A DNA stretch of 64,000 nucleotides from a virus (lineage: Duplodnaviria; Caudoviricetes), in the IMG/VR virus record IMGVR_UViG_3300020576_003089, positions 11,233 to 75,232 of that record, one strand, 5' to 3'. Within the stretch, counting starts at the first letter, position 1. The number at the start of each line of letters is the position of its first letter. The translations under genes were made by a program, and so were the position numbers. Of this stretch, positions 10,074 through 46,408 are shown piece after piece. Below the pieces are notes generated by a model that ran no database searches, was not told the DNA's origin, and saw nothing but the letters and a program-made list of their open reading frames with translations.

Positions 10074-11690
10074 TTATACTGTTTCTAATCCTTCAACGAA
10101 GATTCTTGCATAATAATCAGGTCTGATCATTTTCTTAGCATATCTTGTCATTAACCCTTTACGAGGAGTAAATGTGTTTGGATCATATAATAATGGAGTC
10201 ATTATTAATGGCACATAAGGAGCAAATACAGCACCACATTCTAAGAATTGTGAACCTTTGTAACCCATTAATATAACATTTTCAGTCATATATGGATTTT
10301 TGTACACTTTATAACGGCTGTTTAATTGACCTATTTTTTGTACTCCAAAGTTAAATGTATCTTTTTCACCATCTCCATCAGTTGCAAAACCAGGAATTGA
10401 TTCTAATACAGTGCATATTGCTGGAGAACATACCATGAAATTAGCACCACCTCTTAATGATAATTGGTGAATTTTATTAGATACTTTTTGTAATTTAGTA
10501 CCTAATGTTGAGAACCATCCACCTTGTGCATTATAATAACCACCTGTTGTAGCTGATTGTTGAGTAAACCCAGCACCATTCCATACATTGTTATTTCTTG
10601 CTGACCAATAATCAGTAGTAAATGCATTTTGGATTAACATATCTAACAATTCTAAATCAATTTCCATTGAAATATATTGAGATAAGATACCTGTTAATTC
10701 TGCTTCAGCATCAACACTTTGATAAGCATTTAAATCTTGAGCAAATTCAGGAGTCCATTGTGCTTTTAATTTACGAGTTTTAGCAACAATTGGTTCTGAT
10801 TTTAATTGAACATTAATTTCAGGAATAACAATTGGGTTAGCTTGAGATAAAGTACCTTCATTTTCAAAATCACCACGAGCTGCTGGAGTAGGTTGAACAC
10901 TATAGAACATAGTATAGTTAGCACCTGATGGTAAAACTGTAGCTACAGATGAACCAGTTATAATAAATACAAATGTACCATTAGTATTGTTATAAGTAGT
11001 AAATTGTTGTAAAATGTCTGATGCTACTACAAATGAACCAGTTGAAGCAACAAATGATCTAACAGCGTTTGCATCCATAGAAGCAGTAATAGCATTAGCT
11101 ACAATTGTAACTTTTTTCAATGATGCCGTGTTATAAGTTGAATCATAGTTAATATCAGCCCATGTTACAGAACCTGAAGTACCAGTTAAACCTGATGCTG
11201 TAAACGGATTAATTGAATAATTAAAACGTCCTGCTTCATATAATGAAGAAGTAGCATTTATATCTGTTACATTTGTTGTAGGATTAGCACTATAAAGAGA
11301 ATCACCTGCTCTAAATGGAGATATACTATTACCATATTTAAAATCTAAGTAAAATACTAGACCTGATGGTAAGTTCATTGGTTGAACAGAAATAAATTCT
11401 TTAGCTGCTATATCACCAAATACTCTACGTACTAATGGTAATGCTACACCAGCCCAGTTTTCAGAATTATAACCACCACCACTCATACTATTTGTACCAC
11501 CACCAACGTTGGTTTCTACAATTAATTGTTTAGCTTGGTTTTCAAGTAACATTGACATTGTGTTTCTTTCAGTGTCATTTCTTATACCTTCTAAAAGGCC
11601 AGATTTAACCCATTTTGAGGCTAATCTTTTTGAGTCTTCTTGAATCACTTTAAATGTGTTTGATGATTCAAGTAATTGTTGTATATTCAT
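10074..11690 (-). CDS. Major capsid protein (T4 gp23-like)
   Basis: KW..SGLLEG, MLLENQ, LVRR.FG.IAA....SVQPMNLPSGLVF, AKTRKLKAQWTPEFAQDL, AELTGILS..I..EID, APYVPL, KGLMTRY. Confidence 0.97.
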   Translation of the reverse strand: MNIQQLLESSNTFKVIQEDSKRLASKWVKSGLLEGIRNDTERNTMSMLLENQAKQLIVETNVGGGTNSMSGGGYNSENWAGVALPLVRRVFGDIAAKEFISVQPMNLPSGLVFYLDFKYGNSISPFRAGDSLYSANPTTNVTDINATSSLYEAGRFNYSINPFTASGLTGTSGSVTWADINYDSTYNTASLKKVTIVANAITASMDANAVRSFVASTGSFVVASDILQQFTTYNNTNGTFVFIITGSSVATVLPSGANYTMFYSVQPTPAARGDFENEGTLSQANPIVIPEINVQLKSEPIVAKTRKLKAQWTPEFAQDLNAYQSVDAEAELTGILSQYISMEIDLELLDMLIQNAFTTDYWSARNNNVWNGAGFTQQSATTGGYYNAQGGWFSTLGTKLQKVSNKIHQLSLRGGANFMVCSPAICTVLESIPGFATDGDGEKDTFNFGVQKIGQLNSRYKVYKNPYMTENVILMGYKGSQFLECGAVFAPYVPLIMTPLLYDPNTFTPRKGLMTRYAKKMIRPDYYARIFVEGLETV

Positions 11691-23106: not shown

Positions 23107-23739
23107 TTAAATTATACTCCAAGTACCTGGTTCTGTTAAATTTTCTCTTAATTTATCTATTACTTCTTGTTTTTTTAACGCTGGAATAACATTTCCTGAT
23201 TTATTTAATTTAAAAATATTTAAAAATTCATTACCATCTTCATGTGATAAAGTTGGGTAAGCATATAAAGTATATCCATCGTTTTCTATTTTTATACATC
23301 CCATATCATGGGTTTTACTATAATCAACCAGATAATTAGCTAATTGAGGTCCATTATCAATATCATTAGTATCACCATTATTAATATTATAATATCCTGG
23401 TTTTATTTCCTTATATAAATCAACATCCCAACCATTATCATCAAATTCTTCTATTTTTACTTCTAAACTATTAAAACTATTTATATTAAAATTATCATAC
23501 CATTTATTAAATTTATTTAAATTAAATTTATCTAAATCAAACCCACTTATTATATCAGAAATATAATCATAATATCCTGCTCCTCCTGATCCTACTCCTC
23601 CTAATAATCCTTCATCAAATGAAATTCCAATTTCACCTAATTTAGTACCAATATCTGATAAATCATTTGGATCATTTAAGTCTAATTCATTTAATTTAAT
23701 TCCTGCAAGTTGTTGCATTCTGCGTATTTCGTTCATCAT
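23107..23739 (-). CDS. Cassette protein with RMQQLAGI and LNE leader
   Basis: MMNEIRRMQQLAGIKLNELDLNDP. Confidence 0.75.
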   Translation of the reverse strand: MMNEIRRMQQLAGIKLNELDLNDPNDLSDIGTKLGEIGISFDEGLLGGVGSGGAGYYDYISDIISGFDLDKFNLNKFNKWYDNFNINSFNSLEVKIEEFDDNGWDVDLYKEIKPGYYNINNGDTNDIDNGPQLANYLVDYSKTHDMGCIKIENDGYTLYAYPTLSHEDGNEFLNIFKLNKSGNVIPALKKQEVIDKLRENLTEPGTWSII

Positions 23740-25970: not shown

Positions 25971-25983
25971 AAGAATTTTGACT
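25971..25983 (-). promoter_or_regulatory. AGTCAAAATTCTT element (candidate early/middle promoter)
   Basis: Same 13-mer at 35507 and 38314, 12-mer variant at 45953, each about 17-32 bp upstream of a non-structural gene. Confidence 0.6.
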
Positions 25984-29472: not shown

Positions 29473-30525
29473 TTAATCCAGATCTTCTAAACCTGTGTCA
29501 TCTTTTTTTAAATCATTATTAATATCATTCATAATATTCTGAGCCCAACGTTTTTGATTTGGTGTCAATTTATTATTAATAGCATTTTCAATAAATATTA
29601 AAAATTCTTCATCTTGCATTTTATATATTTCAACAAATAATAATTCTCTTACTCTAGGATCGTCATAATTTGATTCATTATATAAATTACTTACTGCATC
29701 ATAAATAAATTTACCATATTGCATATCATGAGGTTCATTACTTAATTGATCTACGTTTCTTACTACATTTTGATTTTGTTCTTTATCTGTTCCAAATCCT
29801 TGTAATGATAGTAATTCATATAAACCCTTAACAATTTCATGAACTAACATAGGAAAACATATAGCTCGTGCTACAATTGTTATTTTAATTGGTTCTGGTT
29901 CATCAAATCTATTTTTTTCTTCTTCATCTTCTCCTACTTTAACATAAACTTTACCACCTTCAGTTTTTCTACCTAGACTTAACATTGCTAGCATCATTGC
30001 TATTGCATTTTCATCATCAAATATTCCAAAAACTCTTTTAATTAAACCATTATAATCATTAACTAAATTTTGATCTAATTTATCCAAATTATCTCTAAAT
30101 AATAGAAATGCAAACGCTCCTCTAATTGAGGAACCTTGAGTAATAGCATTTATTACTCTACGTTTTTTATCTGATGGTAATTCTTCCCATGATTCCTTAG
30201 GTGGAATTTTAGGTGGTTCAGGCATACCTGCATTAACATCAGTTACTATTTTAGCATCAATTTCAACTCCAGCATATTTTATAATTGGATATGCTTGATG
30301 AACTATATCTACAGCTGTTTGTTCTAAACTAGGAATATGTGACTTTTCAAAAACCATTACTTTTTGTAAAAGAGCAACCATATCACGTTGAGAACTATTA
30401 AGATTAATAGTTTTACCTAAATCAATTAAACTCTGTTTAGATTGACCCTTTAATAAATTTAATGTTTCTGGTTTAAATATTTTCTCATAATTAACTTCTT
30501 CTTTAATTATTTTTTTATTTCTCAT
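29473..30525 (-). CDS. Hypothetical helical protein
   Basis: 350 aa; KRRVINAITQG, FPMLVHEIVKG. Confidence 0.65.
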   Translation of the reverse strand: MRNKKIIKEEVNYEKIFKPETLNLLKGQSKQSLIDLGKTINLNSSQRDMVALLQKVMVFEKSHIPSLEQTAVDIVHQAYPIIKYAGVEIDAKIVTDVNAGMPEPPKIPPKESWEELPSDKKRRVINAITQGSSIRGAFAFLLFRDNLDKLDQNLVNDYNGLIKRVFGIFDDENAIAMMLAMLSLGRKTEGGKVYVKVGEDEEEKNRFDEPEPIKITIVARAICFPMLVHEIVKGLYELLSLQGFGTDKEQNQNVVRNVDQLSNEPHDMQYGKFIYDAVSNLYNESNYDDPRVRELLFVEIYKMQDEEFLIFIENAINNKLTPNQKRWAQNIMNDINNDLKKDDTGLEDLD

Positions 30526-30944
30526 TATTTAGTTAGTGATTTAAAACGATTTTCAATTTTGTTAATTATTTCTTTCTCTTTACCTGCCTTAGGTGCAGTT
30601 TCAGGAGCAGTTTTTGGTGGAGTTAATGGTCTACGTGGGCCTGGTTTAGTTGAGGGTTTACCAGGTGCTATTGATGGACTAGGACTAGTACCAGGTGATG
30701 GTGCTGGAGCTGGGTTATTTTCATTCATATGATCACTAGTGTATTTAGCTAAAATAGATGTGCATATATTAGCAAATTCATCCATTTTGATACCATATTC
30801 ACCTTTAAGTGATGTAAATAAACCTTTTAAACCATTTAAAACTTCTGCTTTTACTTCGTTTGGATCGGGAGCTGCTTCTAAGTTTTCTTTTATTACTTGT
30901 TTAACTATATTCTTAATTGAATTAGCTAATTTTTTTTTATCCAT
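30525..30944 (-). CDS. Protein with amphipathic IKE leader and Pro-rich linker
   Basis: IKNIVKQVIKENLE; MNENNPAPAPSPGTSPSPS. Confidence 0.65.
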   Translation of the reverse strand: MDKKKLANSIKNIVKQVIKENLEAAPDPNEVKAEVLNGLKGLFTSLKGEYGIKMDEFANICTSILAKYTSDHMNENNPAPAPSPGTSPSPSIAPGKPSTKPGPRRPLTPPKTAPETAPKAGKEKEIINKIENRFKSLTK

Positions 30945-30986
30945 TAGTATAATTTATATATAAATATTAAACAAAATCAAAAGATG

Positions 30987-31079
30987 TTACTTATTGTATT
31001 TCCAAATATAACCATATGCTGTTTTTTGTAATCCAATCAAACATTTTCGTATAGTTTCACCACTAGTATTAGCTAATTC
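30987..31079 (-). pseudogene. C-terminal (NUMOD1-type) remnant of a homing endonuclease
   Basis: Hand translation ELANTSGETIRKCLIGLQKTAYGYIWKYNK*, no start codon; resembles the tails of 31982.. (CQGKRQSTLGYKWKY) and 45249.. (KGKQKQAGGFIWKY). Confidence 0.75.
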
Positions 31080-32001
31080 TAAGAATCGAAGAAGCCACAT
31101 AAATTCCATGTGCACCACTTACTGTTATACCTCTTGCTGATAGAGCATCTCCAACAAAATAAACATTTGGGTAATCAATTAATGATAAGTTATTATAATT
31201 TACTAATGGTTCAGGTGATAAATATTTTACTTCGGGTATATATATTCCCCAATCATCACCAAATTCAAATATTTTATTCATTTGATCAATAAAATTAAGA
31301 ATATAATCAGCATATTCTTTTCCTAATGATTGTTCTAAAGCTGCTTGTCCATTTCCAATTTCAAAACAAGATACTCTATTTCCTTCTGATGTTAATGATG
31401 GTTTACGAGATGGAGAAAAATAATATCCTACTCTTTTATCTTTTCTTAACCATGAATCGTCAGAGAAATGTGATTGTATTGCTTGACATTTACTTACAGC
31501 TTCTCTACACCACTCAAATGGATTTTCAATACCTTTAATCTCCATTAATATACCAAAATTGGTCATATCATTTCTAAATTCTTCACCTTTCTTAGCATGA
31601 CCATTATATGAAATATCACCATATGTCTCTTCTACTGCAACATAAGCGGCGTTATTATTAGTGCAAAATGTACGAATACTTACACTATTTTCTTCTTGTT
31701 TTTGTTTTTCAATTTGGTCTAAATCTAATCCTGTAGTGTTATTGAATTCTTTTTTATATTCTTCTCTAGTCTTACCTTCAGGGTATTCAAATTTTAAAGG
31801 GTAATGTTTTTGGTATAATTTAAAGTCATAACTAATATCAATTAATTTTTGAAAATATTTTTGTGGGCTTTCAAATCTCACCCCAATCTGGGCTGCGCGA
31901 GCTTCAGTAGGGAGATTTTTTTCTTTCATAATTTTTTGAGTTAAATCCATACCAGCTTTACCAGTACCATAAATTAAAGTATCAAATTTTATTTTTCTCA
32001 T
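31069..32001 (-). CDS. FAD-dependent oxidoreductase (COG2509-like), C-terminal piece
   Basis: DTLIYGTGKAG, QIGVRFE, IRTFCTNN, YFVGDALSARGITVSGAHG (second FAD-binding motif); lacks the N-terminal GxGxxG. Confidence 0.85.
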   Translation of the reverse strand: MRKIKFDTLIYGTGKAGMDLTQKIMKEKNLPTEARAAQIGVRFESPQKYFQKLIDISYDFKLYQKHYPLKFEYPEGKTREEYKKEFNNTTGLDLDQIEKQKQEENSVSIRTFCTNNNAAYVAVEETYGDISYNGHAKKGEEFRNDMTNFGILMEIKGIENPFEWCREAVSKCQAIQSHFSDDSWLRKDKRVGYYFSPSRKPSLTSEGNRVSCFEIGNGQAALEQSLGKEYADYILNFIDQMNKIFEFGDDWGIYIPEVKYLSPEPLVNYNNLSLIDYPNVYFVGDALSARGITVSGAHGIYVASSILRIS

Positions 32002-32737
32002 ATTGATTGTTTTTATATTTCCATTTATAACCTAAAGTTGATTGTCTTTTTCCTTGACAACAAAGACATATACTTCCATTACTTTTTAATCCGGTTGTAT
32101 TTTCAAATTCTTGAACAGAATCCCATTCTCTAATAAAATTATCTTCTAAATCATATTGTAATATAGGTTTTCTTCTTTTTTGTGAAACCATTTGATTTCT
32201 ATAAGTCCAATCTATATTTCGTTTTTTAAAAGCCTCACTTTTCTTTTTTCTAGTTTCATCAGAATCTTTTATACCTAATCTAACTTTTTTACCTAACATA
32301 GACTTACTTTTTTTATCACATGTCTCTTTAGATTGTTTTTTACCTTTATTAAGTGATATATGACCTTTTAATCCTTCAGATATTTTTCTTTTAGATTCTT
32401 CAGAATGTTTCATTCCTGTGGTGCCAGATTTAACACCACATTCTGCTATATTAGCTAATATATAACCTTTATTTCGCAACTCTAATTCTGTTTCTCTTTC
32501 TTTTAATAATGCTTCTTCTTCACTTAATCCTTCAAATAATATCTCAGATTCAAATACACCATCATTTTTATTTACAATATTATGCCAGTATTGATTTCTA
32601 CCGTATGTTCTAATTTCTCTTCCAGGTACTCCTTTTCCAACATAAAATGGTTCATTTATATCAGGTCGTATATGGATATAAACTATAAAATTATTGTTTT
32701 GTTTTCTTTTCGTGATATTTTTGTTTAAGTTTTTCAT
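31982..32737 (-). mobile_element. GIY-YIG homing endonuclease with NUMOD3/NUMOD1-type DNA-binding repeats
   Basis: IVYIH...FYVGKG...R; HSEESKRKISEGLKG; KPILQYDLEDNFIREWDS; ORF track start 32803, alternative Met 32737. Confidence 0.85.
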
Positions 32738-32834
32738 CGATTTTTTCTTTATTAGACCAGTAATATTTCTTACTATATTCTCGTTGTTTGAGAATACGTT
32801 CATCTTCTGTTTGGTATTTTTTGATACGTCCCAT
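32691..32834 (-). CDS. Unannotated 47-aa basic protein upstream of the endonuclease
   Basis: Hand translation MGRIKKYQTEDERILKQREYSKKYYWSNKEKIDEKLKQKYHEKKTKQ*; ATATTTAT motif 6 nt upstream. Confidence 0.7.
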   Translation of the reverse strand: MGRIKKYQTEDERILKQREYSKKYYWSNKEKIDEKLKQKYHEKKTKQ

Positions 32835-32875
32835 CGATTATAAATATTACAGATCTAAGAAAAAATCTAAGAAAA

Positions 32876-33403
32876 TTAATTATGTTTTGAAATTTTAATT
32901 ATTTCATTAGGTTTAATATCTAAAACATAACATCCATAAAAACTTAAATTTTTATTTTTTAAATCAATTAATTCAGAAACATCCTGTAATGTTGGGTTAG
33001 ATTTAAATTCAATCATTTCATCAAATTTATCAAAATCTTCTACACCAAATTCTTCAGGATCATAATCATCTAAATCTATAAAAACTTCATTTAATGGTTT
33101 TTTGAATTTAATATTAATATAAGGTATATCTCCTCCTTCATCACTCATAGTATCTATCATTTCAAATCTTACTCTTTGGGTAGGAATAGCAGGTTTACTA
33201 GATGATTTAAAATTTTGCTGTGTTGCTTTTAAACCATTTTTAAATTCAGGTTTCCATACAGTATATCCTGTATCTCCTCCTCTTTCAAAATCATCTTGAG
33301 ATTGAAGAAAAGAAGTGTTTAATTCAATAGTTAGAGTGTTATCTTTATTTAATGCCTTATTAATTTCCTCTTTAATGATTTGTTTTAATTCAGATTTTCT
33401 CAT
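32876..33403 (-). CDS. Cassette protein with KSELKQIIKEE leader
   Basis: MRKSELKQIIKEEINKALN; internal PLNEV. Confidence 0.7.
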   Translation of the reverse strand: MRKSELKQIIKEEINKALNKDNTLTIELNTSFLQSQDDFERGGDTGYTVWKPEFKNGLKATQQNFKSSSKPAIPTQRVRFEMIDTMSDEGGDIPYINIKFKKPLNEVFIDLDDYDPEEFGVEDFDKFDEMIEFKSNPTLQDVSELIDLKNKNLSFYGCYVLDIKPNEIIKISKHN

Positions 33404-33450
33404 ATTTTTATCTAATTTTTATATTTGTTTATTCTTTGTCTAAGAAAAAA

Positions 33451-33918
33451 TTAAACTATTTTTAAAATATATTTTGGTTCTAAATACCCTGGTTTATTAG
33501 AAATAATTCTTTCTTCTGCTAATTCAGATCCTCCTAAAGAATCAATTTTAACTCCTACTTGCTTAAACCATTCATCACTTGGTTTATCTATATATGTAGA
33601 AGCTTGGATAGGAACAATTTTATATTTTTCTGATATTTTATTACCATCTAAAACAATTAGCGTTTTATGTTTCCAATTTTGTTTTTTTCTTGTAGTAGAT
33701 ATAAAATATTCATTTGATATTTCTTCTTGAGGTTCACTAAATTTTAATCCTTTATCTAAAATATTTTTTATATTTTTAATATTAGTATAATGATATAATA
33801 ATCCAATTTGTTTTCCTTCATTTAAGAAATCATCATCTTTATTAATTTTGTTTTCTGTAGTAATCCCTGCTAGTTTTTGTAGTCTTTTGATAATTCCTTC
33901 GTTTAGTTGTTTTTTCAT
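33451..33918 (-). CDS. ADP-ribosyltransferase-fold-like protein with scaffold-mimic leader
   Basis: KRLQKLAGI...FLNEGKQIGLLYHYTNIKNIKNILDKGL...FISTTR...IVLDG...EERII. Confidence 0.55.
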   Translation of the reverse strand: MKKQLNEGIIKRLQKLAGITTENKINKDDDFLNEGKQIGLLYHYTNIKNIKNILDKGLKFSEPQEEISNEYFISTTRKKQNWKHKTLIVLDGNKISEKYKIVPIQASTYIDKPSDEWFKQVGVKIDSLGGSELAEERIISNKPGYLEPKYILKIV

Positions 33919-33921
33919 ATT

Positions 33922-34386
33922 TTATTTTTGAATTTCAAATTTAATTTTTTTATTATTTAGTAATTTGATGAGATTTTCATCTGGTTTATGGAGGATAGCT
34001 TTAGTAATAGTTGTTATAGGAATATTACCTTGTATAGAAATAGTTCCTCCTTCGTAACTTCTATTAGCTTGGGTCATTTTATTTTTTATCTTATTGCTAT
34101 CTATCACAAATGTAACATCCAAATCTCCTAATCCATAAAAATTATTATTATCATGTGGAAAATCAGAAACATATACAAATTTACCATAATTTGGATCTTC
34201 ATACCAATCTTCAGGATTTTGGTTTGTTGATTTTAATATGTTTTCATAAGTTTTAATTTCACCACTTTTCAAAATGTTTAAAGCATTTTGTATATCTGTT
34301 GAATGATAAACTAAATTACCTTTTTGGTATTCTTTATCTTCTTTAAGTATTCCAGCTAATTTTTGCCATCTTTTAAATTCTTTCAT
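33922..34386 (-). CDS. ADP-ribosyltransferase-fold-like protein with scaffold-mimic leader
   Basis: KRWQKLAGILKED...LVYHSTDIQNALNILKSGEI...FVYVS...VTFVID. Confidence 0.5.
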   Translation of the reverse strand: MKEFKRWQKLAGILKEDKEYQKGNLVYHSTDIQNALNILKSGEIKTYENILKSTNQNPEDWYEDPNYGKFVYVSDFPHDNNNFYGLGDLDVTFVIDSNKIKNKMTQANRSYEGGTISIQGNIPITTITKAILHKPDENLIKLLNNKKIKFEIQK

Positions 34387-34392
34387 ATTATA

Positions 34393-34911
34393 TTAATCTT
34401 TAATTATTATTTCATTGTTTTCAAAATCTACATCTTCTACCTCAGTTTCCCATTCAAATTTAACACCTTTATCTAATAAATACTCATACCAAGCAACTGC
34501 TATAAGAGAAAGATAATTGCTTCCTATATGCCAAACAGGAAATAATCTTAATCCAAAATACGGTTTAATGAATTCTGGTTCATCTATTGGATTGGAGCAG
34601 AATATTTCTTCTGGTTTAGGATGGAAACGTTTGAAATTATTGATTACTTGATCCATTAACTCCATAGCTTTTTCTTCACCACAGTATTTACTTAATTGTC
34701 CTCCAATTGCAGTGTGATATGTTAATTTACCGTCGCTCCATCCACCTGCACCTAACATACCTTCCATTACTTCTTCAGGTTTACGTTTGTAAGGATCATT
34801 TCCTTTATCTATAATGGTAATTAATTCACCTGGATATCCGTTATCTACTAATTTAGTAGCAGCATTTATACCTGCTACTCCAGCTCCTACTATTACTATT
34901 TTTTTATTCAT
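34393..34911 (-). CDS. FAD-dependent oxidoreductase (COG2509-like), N-terminal piece
   Basis: KIVIVGAGVAGINAA Rossmann motif, GMLGAGGWSDGKL, ends KFEWETEVEDVDFENNEIIIKD*. Confidence 0.88.
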   Translation of the reverse strand: MNKKIVIVGAGVAGINAATKLVDNGYPGELITIIDKGNDPYKRKPEEVMEGMLGAGGWSDGKLTYHTAIGGQLSKYCGEEKAMELMDQVINNFKRFHPKPEEIFCSNPIDEPEFIKPYFGLRLFPVWHIGSNYLSLIAVAWYEYLLDKGVKFEWETEVEDVDFENNEIIIKD

Positions 34912-35138
34912 TTATTGTTTAAATTTAAGAGATTTTGTTCAAGTTCTTTTATTACTTCTTCATATTGTTTACTTGTAATATCCATTGCTTCATCTGTTTG
35001 TCCTTTATCAGCAAAATCTTTACATAATTTAGCTAAATCAATTGCTGCTATTAAATTATCTTTTTTAGATAACATTCCTTTATATGGATTATGGTTTGAT
35101 GATTTCAACATCAATTCTATTATTTCTTTATTTTTCAT
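34908..35138 (-). CDS. Hypothetical protein
   Basis: 76-aa ORF with ATGA overlaps. Confidence 0.6.
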   Translation of the reverse strand: MKNKEIIELMLKSSNHNPYKGMLSKKDNLIAAIDLAKLCKDFADKGQTDEAMDITSKQYEEVIKELEQNLLNLNNK

Positions 35139-35490
35139 TTAATCTTTCTTTAATACGTTGTTCAATTATTTCTCTATCTTGTTGTGTTGGTTGATAATCA
35201 TTCATTAAATTATTAGGTATATTATCCCAAGCATTACCATAATAAGATACATTGAAACCTCTATCAAGACATTCTTTATAAAGTTCTTCATACCTGTTTT
35301 TTAAATATCCTAATTTGTTATAGAAAAATTTTACATGACCTTTTCCTAATGTGAATTGATTTGGGATATCTACTATTTTAGCTCTACCACTTGAAATAGT
35401 ATTAGGAATACGTTTAATTTCTCTATGTTCAGCCATTAAATGTCTGTTTGTTAATTCTCTAGGTTTAATACCTACATTGATTCTTGTCAT
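35128..35490 (-). CDS. denV: Pyrimidine-dimer DNA glycosylase / endonuclease V
   Basis: MTRIN, HLMAEHREIKRI, FTLGKGHVKFFYNKL.YL..RY. Confidence 0.93.
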   Translation of the reverse strand: MTRINVGIKPRELTNRHLMAEHREIKRIPNTISSGRAKIVDIPNQFTLGKGHVKFFYNKLGYLKNRYEELYKECLDRGFNVSYYGNAWDNIPNNLMNDYQPTQQDREIIEQRIKERLNEK

Positions 35491-35506
35491 TCTATAAAAG
35501 TAAGAA

Positions 35507-35519
35507 AAGAATTTTGACT
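35507..35519 (-). promoter_or_regulatory. AGTCAAAATTCTT element upstream of denV
   Basis: Exact copy, followed by TACTTTTA before the ATG. Confidence 0.6.
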
Positions 35520-35572
35520 TTTAACAACCTGTTTCTCGTACTATTATTTTTGACCTTTAATTTCTGTAATTT

Positions 35573-35849
35573 TCATTCTGAACCTGGACCTTCCATCCAT
35601 TCATTTTCATCTATTAATGATAAATTGTCAGATATAACTAAACCTCCACAATCATCTTCACTTCTCGTTATAATTATTTTAATATAATCTTCTCCATCAT
35701 CATTTTCTTCATCTCGGATTTGCCAATCTAATTCATCACTATTAGGATTTAAAATTCCAAAACCTGTTTTATTCATAATGAGTTCAAGATTTAATCTAAC
35801 CCAACTTTCACTAAATCCTGGTTTATTTACTTCTAATTCGTTTAATCAT
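35573..35849 (-). pseudogene. Frameshifted LNE-leader cassette
   Basis: ATG ATT AAA at 35849 is out of frame with TTA AAC GAA TTA GAA GTA AAT AAA CCA (LNELEVNKP), which runs in frame into ORF 35573..35776. Confidence 0.65.
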
Positions 35850-36720
35850 TTAAATCAGGTTCTGTCCATTTAATTATAATACTACCATATTCATCCGTTG
35901 AAACTTTAACTCTTTCTATAAGAGCTTCATGATCATTAAAAATTAATTTCTTTCCTTTTAAAAAGTTAAAGATTTTATTATATTCTTCTATTTGTTCATC
36001 ATCATCCCATAAATGATCTTCATTAAACTCATATTCAATATTTTTATCTTCTCCCATCATGTTATCTTCATAATATACATCTATAACGTTTCGGATATAT
36101 TTTTCAACTTCAGAACGAGTTAAAGGGTGATTTACTTCTAATTCATCTATTAGATCTTCGTCATCTTCCCATTTTTCATCATCATCATCATCGTCATCCC
36201 AATCATCTGATATTTCTAGCATTATTTCATATGCTCTTTTCAAAGCTAAATTTATTGAAGAATATTTTATAGGTTCTTTTATTGCGTTTCCAAAAGCATA
36301 ATATGCTTCTATTGTAAATCCATTTTCTTTTTTAATAATTTTAACATCATCTGTATGATTTTCATCATGACCATCCATAGGTGCTGAAAACCAATAAACA
36401 ATATCTTCTTTAATATCTTCAGGTTCTAATATAATTTCATCCCATCCTTCAGGAATTTTAACATTAGGATTACTTATTTCTAATTCGTTTAGTTGAATAC
36501 ATGCTAATTGTTGCATTCTTTTGATTTCATCAATTCCTGCTTTTTCTAAACGTGAATAATATTTAGGATCTTCTGCTAAATGATCTAATGCTATTTCTTT
36601 AGCAATTATTGAACTATTGGTATGTTCCATTTCATGTTTTATACCTTTTTTAAGTTCATTGTGGTCTACATTTTTAGGATTTAATTTATCTCCTTTTCCA
36701 CCTCGTAATTTATTTAACAT
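35842..36720 (-). CDS. DUF5661-like domain plus LNE-linked modules (polyprotein)
   Basis: GGKGDK...ELKKGIKHEMEH...EIALDHLAEDPKYYSRL; IDEIKRMQQLACIQLNELEISNP; LIDELEVNHP. Confidence 0.7.
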   Translation of the reverse strand: MLNKLRGGKGDKLNPKNVDHNELKKGIKHEMEHTNSSIIAKEIALDHLAEDPKYYSRLEKAGIDEIKRMQQLACIQLNELEISNPNVKIPEGWDEIILEPEDIKEDIVYWFSAPMDGHDENHTDDVKIIKKENGFTIEAYYAFGNAIKEPIKYSSINLALKRAYEIMLEISDDWDDDDDDDEKWEDDEDLIDELEVNHPLTRSEVEKYIRNVIDVYYEDNMMGEDKNIEYEFNEDHLWDDDEQIEEYNKIFNFLKGKKLIFNDHEALIERVKVSTDEYGSIIIKWTEPDLND

Positions 36721-45949: not shown

Positions 45950-46408
45950 TTAAAGATTTTGACTTAAATCTTTTGTAAATATTTTTCCTAAAATGTTACT
46001 ATTAATGAATAAATCAGGTTTTTCTAATACTTCATAAACACACAAATATTTTAATTCAAAGTAAGTGAGCTCTTTTGAAGAACGAGCAAGTTTGAGTAAA
46101 TAACGTTCATAAATTGATTTATCAGGATTATTTTTAATTACATCAGCACTACCATAATATGTTTTCCAATCAGATTCAGCTATTACTTGTTTTTTAGAAG
46201 CCTTTCTACCTCTAGTAATAGGTAATGCTTTAATTTCTTTTTTACCTAATTTAATATTTCGGTTAGTTTTGAAATTTTTCTTACCAATATACATTTTACC
46301 TGAAACTGTATCTTTAACTAAATAAATAAATCCATACCATTCATCTATATTGAATGATTCATTATTTATTAATTCGTCTTCTATTTTATTTAAATTCAAT
46401 ATATCCAT
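45950..46408 (-). CDS. Short GIY-YIG-family nuclease
   Basis: GFIYLVKD...MYIGKKNF...ESDWKTYYGS...FELKY...NSNILG. Confidence 0.75.
   Translation of the reverse strand: MDILNLNKIEDELINNESFNIDEWYGFIYLVKDTVSGKMYIGKKNFKTNRNIKLGKKEIKALPITRGRKASKKQVIAESDWKTYYGSADVIKNNPDKSIYERYLLKLARSSKELTYFELKYLCVYEVLEKPDLFINSNILGKIFTKDLSQNL
45953..45964 (-). promoter_or_regulatory. AGTCAAAATCTT element upstream of endonuclease-primase island
   Basis: One-base-shorter variant; overlaps the last codons of 45950..46408. Confidence 0.5.

Follow-up and report, generated by a model that had tools for sequence, protein, structure and literature searches.

We describe here a flavoprotein gene in two pieces, found on the minus strand of a 64,000-nucleotide (nt) stretch of viral DNA (positions 11,233 to 75,232 of the IMG/VR record IMGVR_UViG_3300020576_003089; this whole stretch is called the window below). 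The gene is divided into an N-half and a C-half, each with its own start and stop, and the 2,391 nt between the stop of the one and the start of the other hold a homing endonuclease gene (HEG) together with small cargo genes. We hold it probable, at about 0.8, that a gene for a flavin adenine dinucleotide (FAD)-dependent flavoprotein was broken by a free-standing, Seg-like HEG, that its two chains co-fold into the usual enzyme without splicing, and that the broken allele has spread by homing with co-conversion of its flanks. The carrier of the gene is a large tailed phage. The window, with a G+C content of about 26%, is part of a 75-kb viral contig with an estimated completeness of 47%, encodes a major head protein, a portal, a large terminase and baseplate wedge proteins, and is related to contigs that reach 150-170 kb.

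The nature of the two halves was settled by comparison with intact relatives. Both match the same family, phrog_12409 (‘dehydrogenase’, 422 positions), the N-half over positions 2-157 and the C-half over positions 347-418. In the alignment to an intact homolog of 456 amino acids (aa) at L001:2419-3789, residues 6-186 of the homolog correspond to residues 5-171 of the N-half and residues 195-453 to residues 7-306 of the C-half. The halves are thus complementary and non-overlapping, and no residues are lost or duplicated at the break. GenBank phage records match both halves in adjacent same-frame stretches (tblastn); in MT836509 these stretches belong to one open reading frame (ORF), the 456-aa homolog of the alignment. 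In Pfam, the N-terminus of the N-half matches Pyr_redox_2 (27.9 bits, cut-off 26.1), its other Rossmann matches being generic FAD/NAD ones, and a Pfam search of the C-half gave no match. A first-pass annotation of the window, made from the letters alone, had joined the halves into one COG2509-like flavoprotein and had proposed mapping the breakpoint on intact homologs; the shared family and the clean, complementary alignment bear this out.

For comparison, 80 related loci (given L-numbers) were taken from viral contigs, and both parts of the gene are visible in 73 of these. The gene is a single fused ORF in 60 of the 73, encoding proteins of 425-479 aa, and is split in 13. More than 8,000 near-full-length relatives are found in the database, where they carry the JGI name ‘uncharacterized FAD-dependent dehydrogenase’, and distant homologs (25-43% identity) are single chains, as is 3nlc, the closest structure that has been solved. 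Because most relatives, the full-length database relatives and the distant homologs are single ORFs, the sequence comparison indicates that the fused gene is the ancestral state. Two objections that had been raised against a split gene, that homologs are normally two separate genes or that the halves come from different paralogs, therefore fall away, since the homologs are normally one gene and the halves together fit one protein. The summed halves of the window (482 aa) exceed the range of fused proteins solely through an in-frame insertion of 41 aa in the C-half, away from the junction (HYPLKFEYPEG...KQEENS, between YDFKLYQK and VSIRTFC, at 31684-31806 on the minus strand). None of the 66 aligned relatives has such an insertion, and it has no match elsewhere in the window or in the 80 loci.

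The position of the break could be read from a model of the fused relative L012 (L012:7482-8759), predicted by AlphaFold2 (AF2) with a predicted local distance difference test (pLDDT) score of 95.8 and a predicted template modelling (pTM) score of 0.91. In this model the break corresponds to the turn 171-175 between strands 167-170 and 176-178, which places it in the turn of a hypervariable beta-hairpin of the FAD-binding domain; among fused alleles the loop of this hairpin varies widely in length and sequence. The best Foldseek match of the fused-relative model is VP0956 of Vibrio parahaemolyticus (PDB 3nlc; E 2.5e-21, TM 0.68), itself listed under COG2509 as ‘uncharacterized FAD-dependent dehydrogenase’, the same name that JGI gives to the relatives. 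HI0933-like and other GR2-type flavoproteins follow in the ranking. The family can therefore be assigned, by its modelled fold, to the VP0956/COG2509-type FAD flavoproteins, for which our searches returned no characterised member. VP0956, which comes from structural genomics, differs in being a single chain of 534 aa, 20% identical in sequence.

The split is not peculiar to one contig. The same break is shared by 13 related contigs, with inserts of 369-1,236 nt, and a database search for separate proteins about as long as the N-half gave 466 clusters; among the best 120 of these, some 75 end at the break site (with tails such as ...GEVILKD, ...EFKTN and ...EYKPIEDKK), some of them on contigs of more than 100 kb. 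Split alleles have junction motifs in common, ...ILKD followed by the stop and then MRKIKFD..., and the new start MRKIK/MKKIK is conserved. Longer N-terminal forms of 239-290 aa were considered as evidence of further break points and this idea was dropped. Two were fetched, both from one sample (3300075516): in L083:4001-5297 (the 239-aa form) the following 203-aa ORF overlaps the end of the truncated gene, which looks like a frameshift or an assembly error and not a further split site, and in L084:4001-5010 (the 281-aa form) a 55-aa ORF comes next, shortly before the end of the contig.

Two families of putative homing endonucleases, here HEG-A and HEG-B, occupy the gap. The window, L011 and L013 carry HEG-A at the 3' end of the gap; four further loci, L005, L044, L054 and L075, have it directly ahead of the C-half, on contigs that stop short of the N-half. 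HEG-B is found in L003 (6891-7541), L035, L066 and L073 at the 5' end of the gap, where it overlaps the stop of the N-half. The assignment of HEG-A draws on NUMOD3 (28.5 bits, cut-off 20.4), on NUMOD1 (19.1 bits, under the cut-off of 22.8) and on phrog_314 ‘homing endonuclease’ (E 9e-16). The motifs VYIH, FYVGKG, Arg, KEREIE and LANI are invariant in 20 HEG-A homologs and stand in GIY-YIG order. The catalytic part shares 39% identity (E 3e-23) with an endonuclease of Curvibacter phage P26059A annotated with a ‘GIY-YIG nuclease domain’, and the annotations of other homologs read homing, Seg-like or intron-associated endonuclease. Searches of HEG-A against PDB sequences (phmmer and profile) and NCBIfam returned nothing. 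HEG-B falls just under the threshold of the Pfam model PF01541, with E 6.5e-4 to 1.2e-3 and 19.5-20.4 bits (cut-off 22.6) over profile positions 3-78 of 78. By their sequences, both would be active endonucleases with a target at this locus. In L041:7087-7757 HEG-B has decayed into fragments of 110 aa and 80 aa while the halves of the flavoprotein are intact, a case of HEG decay after the split, and the gaps of L008, L009, L010 and L021 hold small genes only, without a HEG.

How the split allele came to be distributed among these phages is recorded in its flanks. On the whole-protein tree the split alleles are scattered, requiring 6 changes of state, 5 of them forced by well-supported branches. 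The split allele L010 and the fused allele L051 are 92-99% identical in DNA outside a stretch that reaches from about 60 nt on the 5' side of the junction to about 200 nt on its 3' side. Within this stretch their identity drops to 52-80%, and L010 is there 86-97% identical to other split alleles. The pairs L021/L065, L011/L082 and L035/L077 show the same mosaic pattern, and away from the junction the split alleles match different fused alleles at 93-99% identity. Separate trees were made of the 94 junction-proximal columns, with the loop itself excluded, and of the distal columns. In the distal columns the split alleles need 9 changes, and holding them in one clade costs 424 log-likelihood units and is rejected (approximately unbiased test, p-AU 4e-9). 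In the junction-proximal columns they need 2 changes and one clade is not rejected (p 0.56). A single old split, which had first been read from the shared junction motifs, was replaced by this result, as the two trees show the junction block moving between backgrounds. The comparison indicates that the split allele has been copied into at least five fused-gene backgrounds.

Such incongruence between the trees is consistent with the footprint expected of homing with co-converted flanks, and co-conversion of flanks has been described for T-even endonucleases (PMC2988022). HEG-A-type junctions have the longer diverged flank on the C side, HEG-B-type junctions on the N side. A longer diverged flank beside each HEG would fit cleavage or immunity sites there, and HEG-A would be expected to cut on the C side, in the LIFAVGKSGIDF codons, and HEG-B on the N side. 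In the window, the tract 31808..32019 (Table 1) is a candidate co-conversion or immunity tract.

Both halves of the gene appear to be still in use. All family-invariant alignment columns are kept by the N-half and C-half of the window and by the other split alleles. Pairwise ratios of nonsynonymous to synonymous divergence (dN/dS; Nei-Gojobori) among split alleles are 0.06-0.30 for the N-half and 0.11-0.25 for the C-half, and these low values include the all-split clade L003/L073/L041/L066, a pattern indicating that both halves are under purifying selection. When the two halves were submitted to complex prediction, with FAD riding along unscored, they scored 0.90, the best of 3 controls reaching 0.46. 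Of solved complexes, 58 of 80 reach that mark, as do 2 of 110 mismatched pairs. At least 98% of contacts are common to the runs, and the pLDDT of the partner is at least 87. In the predicted complex, strand 5-8 of the N-half pairs with residues 9-11 of the C-half, helix 13-21 of the N-half packs against the C-terminal helix 295-303 of the C-half, and the hairpin strands (166-172 of the N-half and 1-16 of the C-half) touch. Because these strand and helix contacts cross between the chains, the Rossmann domain in the model is built from both, and neither half is predicted to be an autonomous domain. The two chains would co-fold into the usual enzyme, and the two-chain form would bind FAD.

The conserved residues and the predicted fold bear on two explanations in which the split gene no longer makes its enzyme. 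The gene may be a decaying pseudogene, a dispensable gene killed by the insertion whose ORFs are undecayed remnants. The flavoprotein is accessory, HEG insertions can inactivate genes, and the odd 41-aa insertion in the C-half of the window would suit such decay. We nevertheless consider this unlikely: both halves are open, 12 split alleles keep the invariant residues at a synonymous divergence (dS) of 0.7-2.0 with the low dN/dS given above, and the hundreds of stand-alone N-half clusters stop at one codon position, with the start MRKIK/MKKIK conserved. That the halves no longer cooperate, with a separate role taken on by one or both or with only one of them in use, is a shade less likely still. 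The N-half, with 83-88% protein identity to its relatives, does look more conserved than the C-half, but the lower C-half identity is partly due to the 41-aa insertion being counted as gaps. The Rossmann sheet, the C-terminal helix and the FAD motifs are predicted to interdigitate between the chains, and both halves are kept together in 13 of the 13 split loci in which both ends are visible.

Splicing, or a flaw in the assembly, would account for the gap without a broken protein. The first-pass annotation had weighed a two-chain enzyme produced by homing-endonuclease insertion, as in phage Aeh1, against a large spliced intron carrying passengers. A self-splicing group I or group II intron that houses the five ORFs and is cut out of the mRNA, restoring one reading frame, has precedent, as phage introns often carry GIY-YIG genes and one relative of the catalytic module is annotated ‘intron associated endonuclease’. 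The permissive Rfam scan of 30500-35600 (E up to 10), which took up the proposed search of the insert with group I intron models, found no intron family and three chance-level matches only. In addition, the five ORFs leave noncoding stretches of at most 47 nt, the inserts of the split alleles share no common sequence and the shortest has 369 nt with one ORF, and the in-frame stop and the new ATG are conserved at the break. The intron was given up on these grounds and is very improbable. Least credible of all is a ‘fractured gene’ joined by a split intein in trans (Dassa et al., 2009, PMC2677866): the Pfam scan of the halves shows no Hint or intein domain, the intein pieces of about 100 aa and about 35 aa and the Cys/Ser/Thr at +1 are missing, and the N-half ends, and the C-half begins, directly within the host protein, leaving no length to spare at the junction. 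The sequence evidence thus argues that neither RNA nor protein splicing is involved. An assembly chimera, or a mis-joining of paralogous fragments, is as improbable as the intron. The contig does derive from a metagenome and the composition of its insert is unique among the fetched loci; the same break, however, occurs in 13 independent contigs of many samples and in hundreds of database protein clusters, so that it cannot be put down to chimeric assembly. Furthermore, sub-modules of the insert recur at the same position elsewhere, and the halves complement each other and do not overlap. The Aeh1-like alternative is the one that the evidence upholds, through the fused ancestor, the clean break in a loop, the HEG in the gap, the purifying selection and the predicted co-fold.

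Several observations weigh against a two-chain enzyme spread by homing and account for our reserve. The exact five-gene insert of the window occurs in no other contig fetched, and its C-half carries the unique 41-aa insertion, of uncertain effect. The Pfam model PF01541 for GIY-YIG misses HEG-A even at E 10, the AF2 model of HEG-A is poor (pLDDT 53.7) and too poor for a fold search, and the profile match between HEG-A and HEG-B is weak (hhalign probability 7.9%, E 0.004). The earlier label of a GIY-YIG endonuclease in the insert thus holds as far as a homing endonuclease gene (NUMOD3, phrog_314) with motifs in GIY-YIG order is concerned, and fails at the Pfam model; by its sequence HEG-A is GIY-YIG-like, with membership unproven. 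The dN/dS values are rough, with a dS of 0.7-2.0 that is near saturation, and some of the divergence may predate the split in each background. Two-chain assembly rests on a predictor that may recall single-chain flavoproteins: halves of a split gene tend to pass complex prediction by their likeness to a single chain, which points to compatibility and not to binding. The complex prediction was weighted lightly because halves of one fold can pass via such remembered structures. Finally, plain homologous recombination between co-infecting phages could yield mosaic flanks without endonuclease cleavage.

With these points taken into account, the following course of events would explain the split flavoprotein gene under homing. 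A single-chain gene would have been broken by the insertion of a Seg-like HEG in the hairpin turn, the break placing a stop codon behind the first strand of the hairpin and a new Met ahead of the second strand. Two polypeptides would then be expressed, probably from one polycistronic message, and would co-fold, with the Rossmann sheet and the FAD site assembled from pieces of both. The broken allele, together with 25-200 nt of the coding sequence to either side of it, would be copied by double-strand-break repair. From then on the gap would behave as an intergenic-like slot, in which two HEG families, loss of the HEG and small accessory genes come and go.

The features of the locus are collected in Table 1. 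All ORFs listed in the first-pass annotation were found where it had placed them, the insert of about 2.4 kb with an endonuclease and cargo between the halves measures 2,391 nt and is filled by five ORFs, and the overlap between the last nucleotides of HEG-A and the start of the C-half, which had been given as 20 bp, is exactly 20 nt. Both halves are indeed open with their own start and stop, the N-half ending in ...NNEIIIKD and the C-half beginning with its own Met.

Table 1. Features of the split flavoprotein locus and its surroundings in the window.
Feature	Position	Strand	Remarks
N-half of split FAD flavoprotein, 172 aa	34393..34911	-	GAGVAG dinucleotide-binding motif; ends ...NNEIIIKD (stop) in first beta-hairpin strand
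N-half variant tract (YLSLIAVAWYEYLL region)	34465..34539	-	DNA 91% identical to split allele L041 vs 65-76% to four other alleles compared
Cargo gene 1, 154 aa, weakly ART-like	33922..34386	-	N-terminal KRWQKLAGI motif
Cargo gene 2, 155 aa, weakly ART-like	33451..33918	-	KRLQKLAGI motif
Cargo gene 3, 175 aa	32876..33403	-	MRKSELKQIIKEE leader at start
47-aa ORF	32691..32834	-	phrog_17714 match, E 1e-4; overlaps 5' end of endonuclease ORF
Free-standing homing endonuclease gene HEG-A, 273 aa (putative)	31982..32803	-	GIY-YIG-like N-terminal module (VYIH..FYVGKG..R..E..N), NUMOD3/NUMOD1 DNA-binding motifs
C-half of split flavoprotein, 310 aa	31069..32001	-	Starts MRKIKFDTLIYGTGKAG; second hairpin strand MRKIKFD, LIYGTGKAG strand, terminal FVGDALSARG FAD motif; dN/dS 0.15-0.25
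C-half junction-proximal tract	31808..32019	-	DNA 88% identical to split allele L003 vs 71-76% to other relatives
denV	35128-35490	-	Upstream gene, same block
76-aa ORF	34908-35138	-	Overlaps N-half start
13-mer AGTCAAAATTCTT	35507-35519	-	Just upstream of denV

The insert of the window is the largest version seen, and its parts can be traced to other contigs. The counterpart of cargo gene 1, at 90-91% DNA identity, lies beside the C-half, in the same split, of the HEG-B-type loci L033 and L066. Relatives of cargo gene 2 (31-39% identity) adjoin the flavoprotein gene in L004 and L003, and cargo gene 3 matches, at 86% DNA identity, a gene of L033 that lies outside the split gene. The protein of the 47-aa ORF is identical in L011 and L013. 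The module made up of this ORF and HEG-A matches L011/L013 at 78%, and parts of it are visible in L005, L044 and L054 at 92-94%. From these matches, the insert is a composite of an ADP-ribosyltransferase (ART)-like gene of HEG-B-type inserts, two cargo genes and the module of 47-aa ORF and HEG-A. Two of the cargo genes had been described as ART-like. The ORFs are present, and the label goes back to weak matches only, with E-values in Pfam of 0.014 for PARP, 0.016 for Tox-ART-HYD1 and 0.059 for 2CompART and, among named atlas clusters, nearest scores of 0.84-0.89 (PARP/DarT, Arr, Tox-ART-HYD1), below the lead level of 0.9.

Small cargo genes of the gap that are otherwise unrelated begin with a shared leader of 13-15 residues, M[RK]K[ST]ELxQIIKEEI, at 33403 (minus strand) in the window and at L008:1544, L008:2017, L009:7595, L011:6898 and L021:879. 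It may be a targeting or processing signal (with an I-x-E type site) or a recombination handle. A second motif, R[MLW]Q[KQ]LA[GC]I, stands at the start of the two ART-like cargo genes (34371 and 33885, minus strand), is also N-terminal in the ORFs at 23721 and 21971 (minus strand), and is internal at 36519 (minus strand) in a 292-aa ORF at 35842-36720.

With respect to HEG-A, many of its homologs start at the equivalent of Met23, which makes its true start ambiguous. In another frame, the 47-aa ORF shares its DNA with the first 38 codons of HEG-A as annotated (window 32691-32834 and 32737-32803), and the status of the 47-aa ORF as a gene is likewise ambiguous. Distant HEG-A relatives (27-42% identity) adjoin the flavoprotein gene at L018:7265-7462, L025:6833-7444, L028:6833-7444, L032:6836-7456, L041:6377-6592 and L049:8820-9419, the gene being split in L041 and fused in the other five. 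As these relatives lie immediately upstream or downstream, there are three positions at which endonuclease genes flank or invade the flavoprotein gene.

The locus sits in one tightly packed same-strand block that runs from 35490 to 29473, in which the stops and starts of denV, the 76-aa ORF and the N-half overlap. No terminator-like site was predicted within 30900-35800, and near and distant DNA searches of the region against GenBank phages matched denV only. The 13-mer AGTCAAAATTCTT lies 16 nt from the ATG of denV; it has exact copies in the window at 25971, 35507 and 38314 and a variant at 45952, all on the minus strand, and could be a promoter or a regulatory element that serves gene blocks. 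Separate promoters for the two halves had been proposed at 35507 and 32840. The 13-mer at the former position is real, with its three exact copies, while the latter is a TATAAT-like hexamer 5 nt before an ATG and nothing more, and a scan for sigma-70 consensus promoters was at chance level (37 sites vs 34.8 expected). One polycistronic message is the simplest reading, and separate promoters are not needed. None of the 14 gene starts examined between 29473 and 36720 has a Shine-Dalgarno sequence, all having A/T-rich leaders, which suggests that the host may not rely on initiation led by such a sequence. The C-half start, A-rich and without a Shine-Dalgarno sequence, is like the other genes of the region and thus in a normal context.

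To our knowledge, few natural enzyme genes are split by a free-standing HEG yet used as two chains, and those on record are genes of cultured phages that are essential for replication. Among known systems, nrdA-a/mobE/nrdA-b of Aeromonas phage Aeh1, the ‘genes-in-pieces’ case, comes closest (Friedrich et al., 2007; Crona et al., 2011, PMC3045599; reviewed in PMC2988022). There, too, a free-standing HEG inside a conserved enzyme gene leaves two ORFs with their own stop and start, without splicing and with short new terminal sequences at the break; the Aeh1 enzyme is reassembled from two chains, as is predicted only for the flavoprotein. Unlike the HNH endonuclease of Aeh1, the endonucleases here appear GIY-YIG/Seg-like with NUMOD motifs, and in place of an essential ribonucleotide reductase the gene that was split encodes an accessory flavoprotein, with the break in a variable hairpin on the surface of its Rossmann domain. 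The flavoprotein gap also differs from Aeh1 in holding up to four extra genes, with two unrelated HEG families and HEG-less versions at one break. A further difference is the large number of natural alleles in which lateral spread, with co-conversion of the flanks, can be seen.

Genes that are single in relatives are also split at a free-standing HEG in T4 (genes 39/60 with mobA) and, by a seg insertion at gene 43, in Aeromonas phage 25 (PMC2988022), in both cases essential replication genes of cultured phages. T4 gene 60 has in addition a 50-nt translational bypass, and nothing comparable was seen in the flavoprotein split. The T-even endonucleases SegA-G, with their intronless homing and marker exclusion (PMC2988022), are free-standing enzymes of the GIY-YIG type, which the present HEGs resemble, and share with them NUMOD motifs, an ORF that overlaps its neighbour and co-converted flanks. 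Seg genes are normally intergenic, whereas the HEG here lies inside a gene and its cleavage is predicted only. HEG islands at the boundaries of genetic exchange (Barth, Dunham & Seed, 2023, PMC10448857) resemble this locus in that HEGs in or near conserved genes mark recombinant tracts and neighbouring genes are possibly mobilised with the HEG; the unit exchanged here differs in being small (0.4-2.4 kb with flanks of 25-200 nt) and inside one gene. Lateral spread and turnover of the insert are what is new for this locus.

A further and more tentative thought, which we regard as possible and rather doubtful, is that the split gene serves as a portable landing pad. The halves would act as homology arms, and either HEG would drive the copying of the gap content into naive phages, so that leader-tagged accessory genes, among them those of ART-like enzymes that may be packaged or injected, would hitch-hike between phage genomes. 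If this were true, the split would be maintained and spread as a site of cargo exchange and not merely tolerated. The two-chain reading itself would add to the genes-in-pieces cases an accessory flavoprotein broken inside its FAD-binding Rossmann domain. It also brings a natural allele series, as fused alleles, alleles split with either HEG family and alleles split without a HEG coexist in related phages. With alleles of all these states side by side, insertion, co-conversion of flanks, HEG loss and cargo turnover become readable from sequence. The series would thus offer a test bed for the split-protein assembly of flavoproteins with two dinucleotide-binding domains, for the specificity of two Seg-like endonucleases and for the ferrying of passenger genes by HEGs.

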